From: a virus
Virus genome (UHGV): UHGV-0164982
Direction: 5' to 3' (one strand)
DNA length: 64,000 nucleotides
Part shown: in pieces, positions 42,025 through 42,673 of the stretch
Layout of the letters: every line of letters starts with the position of its first letter
Position numbering within the stretch: the first letter of the stretch is position 1
The notes under the pieces: generated by a model
What the model was told of the DNA's origin: nothing
Databases searched by the model: none
Seen by the model: the letters and a program-made list of their open reading frames with translations, nothing else
Made by a program: the position numbers and the translations under genes

Positions 42025-42461
42025 CCAGAATAATTGAGTAACGACTATTATTTAACCAGCAAAGTAACTTTTAATTTTTTTTCTTCTCCCATTGATTTTT
42101 GTGCACAGCTTATCTGCCTTGCCGTGCGCAGAATCAACTTTTTTCTTCCTGATTTATCCACAAAGTTATGCACTTGCAAGAGGGCCATTTTCTAAATATT
42201 GTGATGTTTCACAAATGAAATGAATTTTGATTAATGAAGATAAGGAGAAAATTTGAGATGCAATCATGACGTTAATAGATAGGGTCTGCATTACAGACCC
42301 CATCCGCATCAAGGAATTAGCCGTTCCCTGATGTTGTTCCGAAAACATGTGCCGTAAGCTCACGTTAACGACTTTCTTTCACCGAATCCAACTATATAGG
42401 GGTTGGGTTTCTACGTCAACGTGAGCAAGTGCTCCTTTACATTTGACAAGGAACCACCTTA

Positions 42462-42599
42462 ATGACTGCTTTTTTTCAGTTCCTGAGTGCATTTTTAGAT
42501 GCGCCTGTTATTAGCCAGATTCTGGCGATCATCCTCATCATCGTTTTGATTTTGCTTTTAAGGTCAGTAAAAAATGGAATTATGCACTGGCTTACTTAA
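42462..42599 (+). CDS. 45-codon hydrophobic small ORF (candidate small membrane toxin)
   Basis: MTAFFQFLSAFLDAPVISQILAIILIIVLILLLRSVKNGIMHWLT; AAGGA about 10 nt upstream; lies in a roughly 650-bp gene-poor stretch. Confidence 0.3.
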   Translation: MTAFFQFLSAFLDAPVISQILAIILIIVLILLLRSVKNGIMHWLT

Positions 42600-42673
42600 T
42601 GTTCAGTGAAACATTAAAATCTCCTTGATGTGGAAACAATCATTTTCTGTATGTGCTGGTGGGTACCTGTAGT

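Follow-up and report, generated by a model that had tools for sequence, protein, structure and literature searches.

The window analysed here, a stretch of 64,000 nucleotides from the virus genome UHGV-0164982, is to judge from its sequence a P1-like phage-plasmid: over 41700-43100 it shares 99.9% identity with Escherichia phage JL22, its closest relative, and with many E. coli plasmids, and 99.4% with bacteriophage P1, the textbook phage that is the source of the phd-doc addiction paradigm. Our subject is the gap between hot and pmgV (Table 1), which had been picked out in an initial annotation as a gene-poor stretch of about 650 bp and indeed spans 649 bp (42025-42673). The further statement that it contained "only" a small open reading frame (ORF) for a hydrophobic helix stands in one part and not in the other. 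The ORF, of 45 codons, is present; the P1 records also annotate in this gap the late promoter LPhot, an "nrdA-like promoter" with a DnaA box on the plus strand, the reading frames upfO, upfN, and upfM on the minus strand, and several predicted sigma-70 promoters. Overlooked in that earlier reading were LPhot and the host-derived nrdA promoter with its DnaA boxes. The P1 reference annotation, for its part, lacks the 45-codon ORF, which is the "hypothetical protein" WP_000123562.1 of the NCBI Prokaryotic Genome Annotation Pipeline (PGAP) and gp107 in phage JL22. Our analysis indicates that the gap probably holds an overlooked gene for a small membrane protein, whose promoter is a copy of that of host nrdA and against which a structured antisense RNA is directed.

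The product of the 45-codon ORF is MTAFFQFLSAFLDAPVISQILAIILIIVLILLLRSVKNGIMHWLT. As had been claimed, an AAGGA resembling a Shine-Dalgarno (SD) sequence precedes the ORF, 9 nt before its ATG, and the product has a hydrophobic helix followed by basic residues: the mean Kyte-Doolittle hydropathy of residues 17-33 is 3.3, and the C-terminal tail contains R34, K37, and H42. AlphaFold2, run on the single sequence, predicts helices at residues 2-12 and 15-44 with a break at D13-A14, just before Pro15 (mean predicted local distance difference test score 88). Small size, hydrophobicity, the nature of the C-terminal tail, and an intergenic distance with a threshold starting at >400 nt have been used as criteria for type I toxin genes (Fozo et al. 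2010; PMC2887945). The 45-residue product is a small hydrophobic protein with a predicted transmembrane helix and a polar or charged C terminus, and its ORF stands apart from its neighbours in the gap, with 437 nt separating it from hot and 74 nt from pmgV. We scanned both strands of the 64-kb window for ORFs that start with ATG, have 20-61 codons, follow an SD-like motif, and encode 17 consecutive residues of mean Kyte-Doolittle hydropathy >3.0; the 45-codon ORF was the sole match, and a feature of this kind is therefore not a common chance occurrence in the DNA of the window.

We searched for the locus in PLSDB, INPHARED, complete E. coli genomes, IMG/VR, GTDB species genomes, and metagenomes, and used HMMER on 1.84 billion protein representatives. 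Throughout these databases it is confined to P1-like elements of Escherichia, Salmonella, and Shigella, and it occurs in three lineages only: the P1 type, a P7 type that is ~92-96% identical, and a divergent type (L058/L006) that is ~77% identical. It is found in 216 of 5426 complete E. coli genomes (~4%), almost always on a plasmid. For distant relatives, a word search of 5.8 billion proteins and the exhaustive HMMER scan brought up nothing but copies of the ORF itself that carry a frameshift or are truncated, and the window contains no paralogue of the module. Eleven further 15-mer matches in IMG/VR were dismissed as chance.

Within this narrow range the ORF is well kept. Start codon, stop position, and the length of 45 codons are retained in all 24 unique variants, and the frame is intact in 228 of 229 plasmid records; the truncated allele in NZ_CP030285.1 stems from a single-base homopolymer insertion and was set aside as a probable assembly error. 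The SD sequence of the ORF changes from AAGGA to GAGGA in the divergent L058 lineage, at a suitable spacing, and across lineages the ORF has accumulated no insertion or deletion at 77.5% nucleotide identity, whereas the flanks and the rest of the transcript region show at least 7 such events. When neutral divergence was simulated, the ORF survived in 16.5% of trials, and residues 1-33 were as hydrophobic as observed in 3.7%. We consider it likely that the 45-codon ORF is genuine. As a separate observation, the database "proteins" related to it (including L065 1751-1900) are all C-terminally altered copies, arising from single-base changes in A/T runs or from junctions with other DNA.

The reading frames annotated on the opposite strand behave differently. 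We translated eight candidate ORFs of the gap across the P1, P7, and L058 lineages, and the only two that stay open in all of them lie on the plus strand, namely the 45-codon ORF and a leader ORF of 21 codons. In the P7 type upfN has a frameshift and in the L058 type multiple stops; upfM has a frameshift with stops in the L058 type; and upfO is truncated or interrupted in both. Because each of the three is frameshifted or stopped in P7-type and/or L058-type elements, we conclude from these alignments that upfO, upfN, and upfM are probably not genes. They find no match in Pfam or NCBIfam, and PGAP does not call them in RefSeq plasmids. In a CRISPR interference (CRISPRi) knock-down screen upfN, upfO, hot, and pmgV were non-essential for lytic growth, and for upfM, which was outside that screen, non-essentiality is given on the strength of an earlier deletion survey (PMC10695390). 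The non-essentiality of these five is compatible with an accessory module; deleting upfN or upfM would take away parts of both the candidate toxin and the candidate antitoxin discussed below.

Upstream of the 45-codon ORF, the nrdA-type regulatory segment aligns with the E. coli chromosome directly upstream of nrdA, whose identity is confirmed by the N terminus of NrdA downstream (MNQNLLVTKRDG). The homology extends over ~115 bp at ~82% identity, takes in both DnaA boxes, the -35 hexamer TTGCAA, the 17-nt spacer, and the position of the -10, and stops just past the -10; the chromosomal alignment ends 110 nt upstream of the nrdA ATG. Compared with the E. coli nrdAB promoter region, the nrdA leader and the downstream NrdR-box region are replaced in P1 by a P1-specific leader. 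On this alignment the promoter segment is of host origin. Its core of DnaA boxes and -35 is invariant across the three full-length lineages, and in the D6-like relative L008, described below, the core has two substitutions (GTTATCCACAGAGTTATGCACTTGCAT). Orientation and synteny indicate that this promoter most likely drives the mRNA of the small ORF, with a putative start at ~42209 and a leader of ~250 nt.

The segment has also diverged unevenly. In its upstream half (42056-42150) P1 and P7 are only ~65% identical, the flanks being 96-99% identical, and the P7 copy is much nearer to the E. coli nrdA upstream sequence than is the P1 copy; together these two observations suggest that P1-like plasmids have recombined repeatedly with the regulatory region of the host's nrdA. 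Overlapping the -10, the sequence TTTCTAAATATTGTGA (42189-42204) resembles a single NrdR box, with ~11-12 of 16 positions agreeing by eye with what we take to be the consensus. Inspection by eye revealed no second NrdR box at the expected spacing, and the resemblance of TTTCTAAATATTGTGA is weaker in the L058 lineage.

Facing the ORF on the minus strand is a promoter with 10 of 12 consensus matches, the best sigma-70 site in 41700-43100, which lies 43 nt upstream of the ORF and has identical hexamers in all variants. Folding of the sequence that follows it predicts a cis-antisense small RNA (sRNA), the candidate antitoxin, in which 13 single-stranded nt at the 5' end precede three hairpins; the final hairpin (42278-42304) is followed by UAUCUAUUAA. 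The predicted minimum free energy is -43.8 kcal/mol (z = -5.48), a stability reached by none of 200 shuffles; the version of the L058 lineage has z = -4.56, and the complementary plus-strand segment folds too (z = -4.28). In all six variants the minus-strand RNA is more stable than the plus strand by 11-13 kcal/mol, a bias explained by 8 of the 35 pairs being G.U or U.G on the minus strand in most variants. Across variants pairing is retained in 98% of cells. One A>G change preserves pairing on the minus strand only, the three loop-region changes of hairpin 2 all fall within the loop and leave the stem almost unchanged, and hairpin 3 has one compensatory U-A>C-G pair.

The conservation of the locus follows a distinct profile. 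Between the P1 and L058 types, which are 77% identical overall, identity is 44% in the segment just after the predicted mRNA start, rises to 89.7% over the leader and sRNA (42240-42384) and to 97.6%, the maximum of the locus, over the block of the minus-strand promoter (42385-42425), and then falls to 61% just before the ORF, 77.5% in the ORF itself, and 67% in the 3' tail.

The leader carries reading signals of its own: a strong SD sequence within an invariant block, a mini-ORF, and the 21-codon leader ORF, the start of which overlaps the stop of the mini-ORF (ATGA). The leader ORF keeps its length in all lineages with 6 of its 21 residues changed, and it ends at 42331, 130 nt before the AUG of the candidate toxin. 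The mini-ORF is reduced to ATG-TAA in the L058 lineage, with the same downstream ATG, and reads MHL followed by a stop in L064, where the ATGA arrangement survives the substitutions. We infer a regulatory role for these leader reading frames, like that of mok and ldrX. In the predicted folds of the full-length mRNA from the three lineages the SD sequence of the candidate toxin is mostly paired, with a different partner in each, and for that reason we do not claim a conserved anti-SD switch. A 13-nt inverted repeat (I4, 92% complementary) connects the leader (42303-42315) with the 3' tail (42622-42634), and in the L058 lineage a helix of 15-17 bp is predicted between the 5' end and the extreme 3' end of the module (dG -20.8 kcal/mol, p ~0.005).

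Comparison of related elements shows that 42056-42661 is a self-contained cassette of ~600 bp that behaves as a unit, because the P7 type keeps it without hot and the L006 type keeps it without pmgV. In P7, 42056-42673 is retained though other DNA and IS903 replace hot; in the L006 type the stretch from hot to 42661 is retained though a type I restriction-modification gene replaces pmgV. In RCS47 (L154 888-1238) hot and a pmg gene flank an unrelated plus-strand gene of 116 residues in place of the cassette.

The same hotspot holds another arrangement in two D6-like relatives, NZ_CP117972.1 (L008) and NZ_CP047004.1 (L009), which are without the cassette of the 45-codon ORF. Downstream of their own nrdA-type promoter we find a different sRNA and a 27-codon ORF (L008 1590-2160). 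The sRNA matches Rfam AgrB (RF02891) over its full length, at a sub-threshold 27.6 bits against a gathering score of 40, and a 20-nt repeat lets its 5' end pair with the 5' untranslated region of the 27-codon ORF, which is the layout of dinQ/agrB. This module is 98.7% conserved between the two elements and is, by prediction, a different candidate type I toxin-antitoxin system; the presence of a dinQ/agrB-like cassette in D6-like relatives makes a type I reading of the P1 cassette more plausible.

Set beside known systems, the P1 locus would appear to work like ldr/rdl or hok/sok and to be a member of neither. By prediction it shares with ldr/rdl a small single-pass membrane peptide and a cis-antisense RNA that covers the 5' leader upstream of the toxin ribosome-binding site (RBS) and does not overlap it; rdlD spans -114 to -49 from the ldr AUG in the real loci that we retrieved, and the predicted P1 RNA spans -187 to -78. 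In those ldr loci an upstream in-frame ORF, which we take to be ldrX, reaches the antisense-covered region, where the P1 locus has its 21-codon leader ORF. The ldr leader frame, however, is in frame with the toxin, whereas the P1 leader ORF is separate and not in frame; Ldr has 35 residues and a W-W/R-N-R-K end, which the 45-residue P1 peptide lacks; rdlD is ~66 nt long, compared with ~110 nt and three hairpins for the predicted P1 RNA; and ldr forms long direct repeats on the chromosome, whereas the P1 locus is single-copy on a phage-plasmid. Membership of the Ldr family, a lead that arose from a local APVIxxILA match, was rejected as unconfirmed. The likeness is local, lying around a conserved Ala-Pro break (LDAPVISQILAIILI versus LAAPVIAGILASMIV, 8 of 15 identical, pairwise E 0.001); the peptide has no match to Ldr_toxin (PF13940) at E up to 10, where the LdrD control scores 93.7 bits, and the hhalign probability is 5.6%. 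A tblastn search with LdrD retrieves no P1-like plasmids, and rdlD (RF01813) gives no match at E up to 10, the true loci scoring 52-92 bits.

With hok/sok the locus has in common that it is plasmid-borne, that it would encode a small membrane peptide, that a strong and presumably constitutive antisense promoter lies within the leader, and that the predicted antisense RNA is directed at a leader reading frame and not at the toxin RBS; a possible 5'-3' fold-back in the L058 lineage may be added. It differs in having no Hok/Gef match in Pfam and no Sok match in Rfam, and mok overlaps hok, whereas the P1 leader ORF does not overlap the toxin ORF. The tisB/istR-1 and dinQ/agrB systems resemble the proposed P1 module in their stress-regulated host-type promoter (LexA there, nrdA with DnaA boxes here), constitutive antitoxin RNA, and long leader, but their sRNAs are divergently encoded and partly complementary, whereas the predicted P1 RNA is fully cis-antisense. 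Their LexA control is without a counterpart here, the annotated LexA site belonging to lxr/humD, and neither IstR nor AgrB (RF02891) finds an Rfam match in the window. Against the whole of Rfam, whether at the gathering threshold or with E as high as 10, the window yielded nothing beyond trivial hairpin matches.

We tentatively propose, at somewhat short of an even chance, that the hot-pmgV gap carries a new type I toxin-antitoxin-like module. The model starts from what is observed, namely the sequence features, the pattern of their conservation, the greater predicted stability of the minus-strand RNA, and the derivation of the promoter from host DNA, and we infer from it both transcripts, the translation of the ORF, its toxicity, and the regulatory logic. 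A plus-strand mRNA would start at ~42209 from the nrdA-copied promoter, with its two DnaA boxes abutting the -35, and would carry a leader of ~250 nt, comprising the strong SD sequence, the mini-ORF, and the 21-codon leader ORF, ahead of the 45-residue helix-break-helix membrane peptide. From the near-consensus and presumably constitutive minus-strand promoter (42419-42391) would come the ~110-nt three-hairpin RNA, perfectly complementary to the stretch of the leader that runs from -187 to -78, counted from the toxin AUG. By pairing with the leader, this RNA would block translation of the leader ORF and/or trigger cleavage by RNase III and so keep the peptide off, by the logic of ldr/rdl and hok/sok. 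Upon loss of the plasmid-prophage, or upon induction of the nrdA-type promoter by replication or deoxynucleoside triphosphate (dNTP) stress, the labile antisense RNA would be outrun, and the released peptide would damage the inner membrane.

The layout of a type I toxin locus or small membrane regulator, with an antisense RNA upstream, had been proposed for this gap at the outset, and the proposal is partly supported: the ORF and its SD sequence are kept in three lineages, the opposite ORFs decay, and a near-consensus minus-strand promoter leads into a structured RNA. Several results weigh against it. The codon signature of the ORF is weak (ratio of nonsynonymous to synonymous substitution rates, dN/dS, 0.45; 11, 8, and 12 substitutions at the three codon positions), and a test of BLOSUM scores is unexceptional (P = 0.18), both tests being uninformative for an ORF so short. 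The peptide matches nothing meaningful in Pfam, NCBIfam, or PHROGs, and no toxin family. The nrdA-type promoter has 8 of 12 consensus matches when counted from the sequence, and in the D6-like relatives it leads into a terminator and not into a 45-codon ORF. Covariation in the sRNA is not significant, its one compensatory pair being equalled in 87 of 500 shuffles of the six distinct sequences, because only three lineages exist anywhere that we searched. A terminator scan did not call the last sRNA hairpin, the U-tract of which is poor (UAUCUAUUAA), so that the 3' end of the sRNA is uncertain and the minus-strand transcript might read through toward hot; nor did the scan find an intrinsic terminator for the plus-strand mRNA. 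Significant pairing of the mRNA ends in the manner of hok is limited to the L058 lineage, the P1 and P7 types scoring no better than their shuffled controls, and the uneven conservation could come partly from recombination mosaicism. A literature search found no type I system, sRNA, or small protein described at this P1 locus, nor any experiment showing one of the two transcripts, translation of the ORF, or its toxicity.

Everything that speaks for the ORF, for its promoter, and for the antisense RNA would apply equally if the gene were real and antisense-controlled and yet not part of a toxin-antitoxin system, the peptide being a benign modulator that acts, for example, on a membrane protein of the host, on superinfection exclusion, or on the physiology of the envelope or of replication stress. 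The nrdA-type promoter would then express the peptide when host replication or dNTP levels change, and the antisense RNA would merely tune its level. Many small bacterial membrane proteins are regulators and not toxins (reviews include PMC12648545), the peptide is without family-level similarity to any known toxin, and P1 already has phd-doc 1.3 kb away. However, a long structured leader with a leader ORF, a strong and presumably constitutive cis-antisense promoter conserved better than anything else at the locus, a place among the hypervariable cargo of a plasmid-prophage, and a dinQ/agrB-like cassette at the equivalent site in relatives together make up the specific signature of type I toxin loci and not of known small regulators. 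We regard a benign role as rather unlikely.

A little less probable still, and in our view unlikely, is that the ORF is fortuitous, in a gap made up wholly of regulatory or remnant DNA. LPhot and the sigma-70 promoter at 42419-42391 would both serve hot, the structured transcript would be the 5' leader of a lysogenic hot mRNA, the captured nrdA upstream DNA would be at most a DnaA-binding site, and the conservation of 42240-42425 would reflect leader or promoter function or recent recombination. LPhot has been mapped experimentally, no convincing terminator separates the minus-strand promoter from hot, chance alone would retain the ORF with a probability of ~0.17 and its dN/dS is unimpressive, the D6-like relatives have the nrdA-type promoter without the 45-codon ORF, and the region is prone to recombination (PMC9603915). 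Against this stand the P7-type elements, which keep the whole cassette with hot replaced, and RCS47, which has hot without the cassette, so that conservation does not track hot. The ORF, its SD sequence, its length, and its hydrophobicity are moreover kept without insertions or deletions while the annotated upf ORFs decay, it is the sole such ORF in 64 kb, and conservation alternates in blocks of 30-140 bp that match the functional elements, which suits selection better than mosaicism. That the P1 reference annotation is right, and the gap encodes UpfM, UpfN, and UpfO on the minus strand, we think very improbable. All three are annotated in AF234172 and NC_005856, and UpfM has a PHROG (31823), itself built from P1-like annotations; the frameshifts and stops in P7 and/or L058 types largely refute them as genes, and the missing Pfam, NCBIfam, and PGAP support and the non-essentiality of upfN and upfO by CRISPRi, and of upfM by the earlier deletion survey (PMC10695390), point the same way.

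Were the type I reading correct in full, P1 would have a second addiction or stress module, with a toxin of a new type I family whose mRNA is wired to a captured host ribonucleotide-reductase promoter; toxin release would be coupled to replication initiation or dNTP status and not to the SOS response, and in the humD/hot-pmg region unrelated type I cassettes would be exchanged for one another, the P1, P7, and L058 types carrying the present cassette and D6-like elements one that resembles dinQ/agrB. We advance this full version only as a doubtful one. The proposed module, if real, would place an RNA-controlled membrane toxin in a phage-plasmid lineage found in ~4% of complete E. coli genomes and often carrying resistance genes, would show concretely how a mobile element puts a host cell-cycle promoter (nrdA with its DnaA boxes) to new use in toxin control, and would add one new family of toxins and one of antisense RNAs, neither having a Pfam or Rfam model. 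The annotation of P1, where the region is still shown with three ORFs that fail comparison, would be corrected. Should the ORF prove non-toxic, it would still be an unrecognised antisense-controlled small membrane protein in a model phage. At its shallow comparative depth, the locus would be relevant to specialists in phage-plasmids and in toxin-antitoxin systems.

Table 1. Features of the hot-pmgV gap, its boundary genes, and the corresponding D6-like module (window coordinates unless L008 is named).
Feature	Position	Strand	Basis or remark
SD sequence and 45-codon ORF, candidate toxin (small helix-break-helix membrane protein)	SD 42448-42452; ORF 42462-42599	+	Sequence, conservation, AlphaFold2
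nrdA-type regulatory segment, proposed promoter of the small-ORF mRNA	42078-42203	+	"nrdA-like promoter" and "dnaA box" in M95666 and AF234172; E. coli alignment
DnaA box TTATCCACA	42154-42162	+	Within nrdA-type segment
DnaA box TTATGCACT	42166-42174	+	Within nrdA-type segment; abuts -35
-35 TTGCAA, 17-nt spacer, -10 TATTGT	-35 42174-42179; -10 42197-42202	+	nrdA-type promoter; putative start near 42209
Leader SD TAAGGAG	42241-42247	+	Read from sequence; block invariant
Mini-ORF ATG CAA TCA TGA	42258-42269	+	Stop overlaps (ATGA) leader-ORF start
21-codon leader ORF	42266-42331	+	Read from sequence; length constant in all lineages
3' tail of conserved module	42600-42661	+	Inter-lineage homology ends near 42661
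Putative antisense RNA promoter	42391-42419	-	TTGACG, 17 nt, TATAGT; annotated in P1 as predicted "PupfN"
Predicted cis-antisense sRNA, ~110 nt, candidate antitoxin	42272-42384	-	Folding; both ends putative
LPhot (formerly LPr91), Lpa-dependent late promoter of hot	42047-42070	-	Known P1 feature; coordinates transferred from P1 annotation (L001 3348-3371)
upfM	42379-42492	-	Annotated in AF234172 and NC_005856; PHROG 31823
upfN	42166-42363	-	Annotated in AF234172 and NC_005856
upfO	42048-42188	-	Annotated in AF234172 and NC_005856
hot, DNA polymerase III theta subunit homologue	41761-42024	-	Pfam PF06440, E 5.4e-34; annotated in P1 AF234172; left gap boundary
pmgV	42674-43036	-	P1 annotation; PHROG 4403, E 7e-78; convergent with small ORF; right gap boundary
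AgrB-like sRNA (D6-like)	L008 1704-1793	-	Full-length sub-threshold match to Rfam AgrB (RF02891); bidirectional terminator
27-codon ORF MVNLLFKIVPPMFAIIKAIIEYVNQRP (D6-like)	L008 2038-2121		Own SD sequence and terminator

For LPhot the M95666 record gives a mapped start site and a late operator, and a promoter scan of the window finds an AATAAT promoter-like site at 42047-42052, within LPhot. To the left of the gap, at a distance of 1.3-2.3 kb, are the phd-doc addiction operon and humD, and a published comparison of P1-like phage-plasmids counts the region from pmgT to humD among eight that are hypervariable (PMC9603915). The translation-initiation region of hot (42008-42026) and hairpin 3 in the conserved block (42287-42305) have in common a 19-nt direct repeat with 79% identity; by virtue of this repeat, which could be due to chance, the plus-strand leader may be partly complementary to the start of the hot mRNA. 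To the right of pmgV the window resembles JL22 and not P1, another swap within the hypervariable region: where P1 carries pmgU and pmgT, the window has 43033-44004 and 44001-44588 on the minus strand, the former being a 323-residue ORF at the place where JL22 has an "EaA protein" beside pmgV (UOL51052.1).

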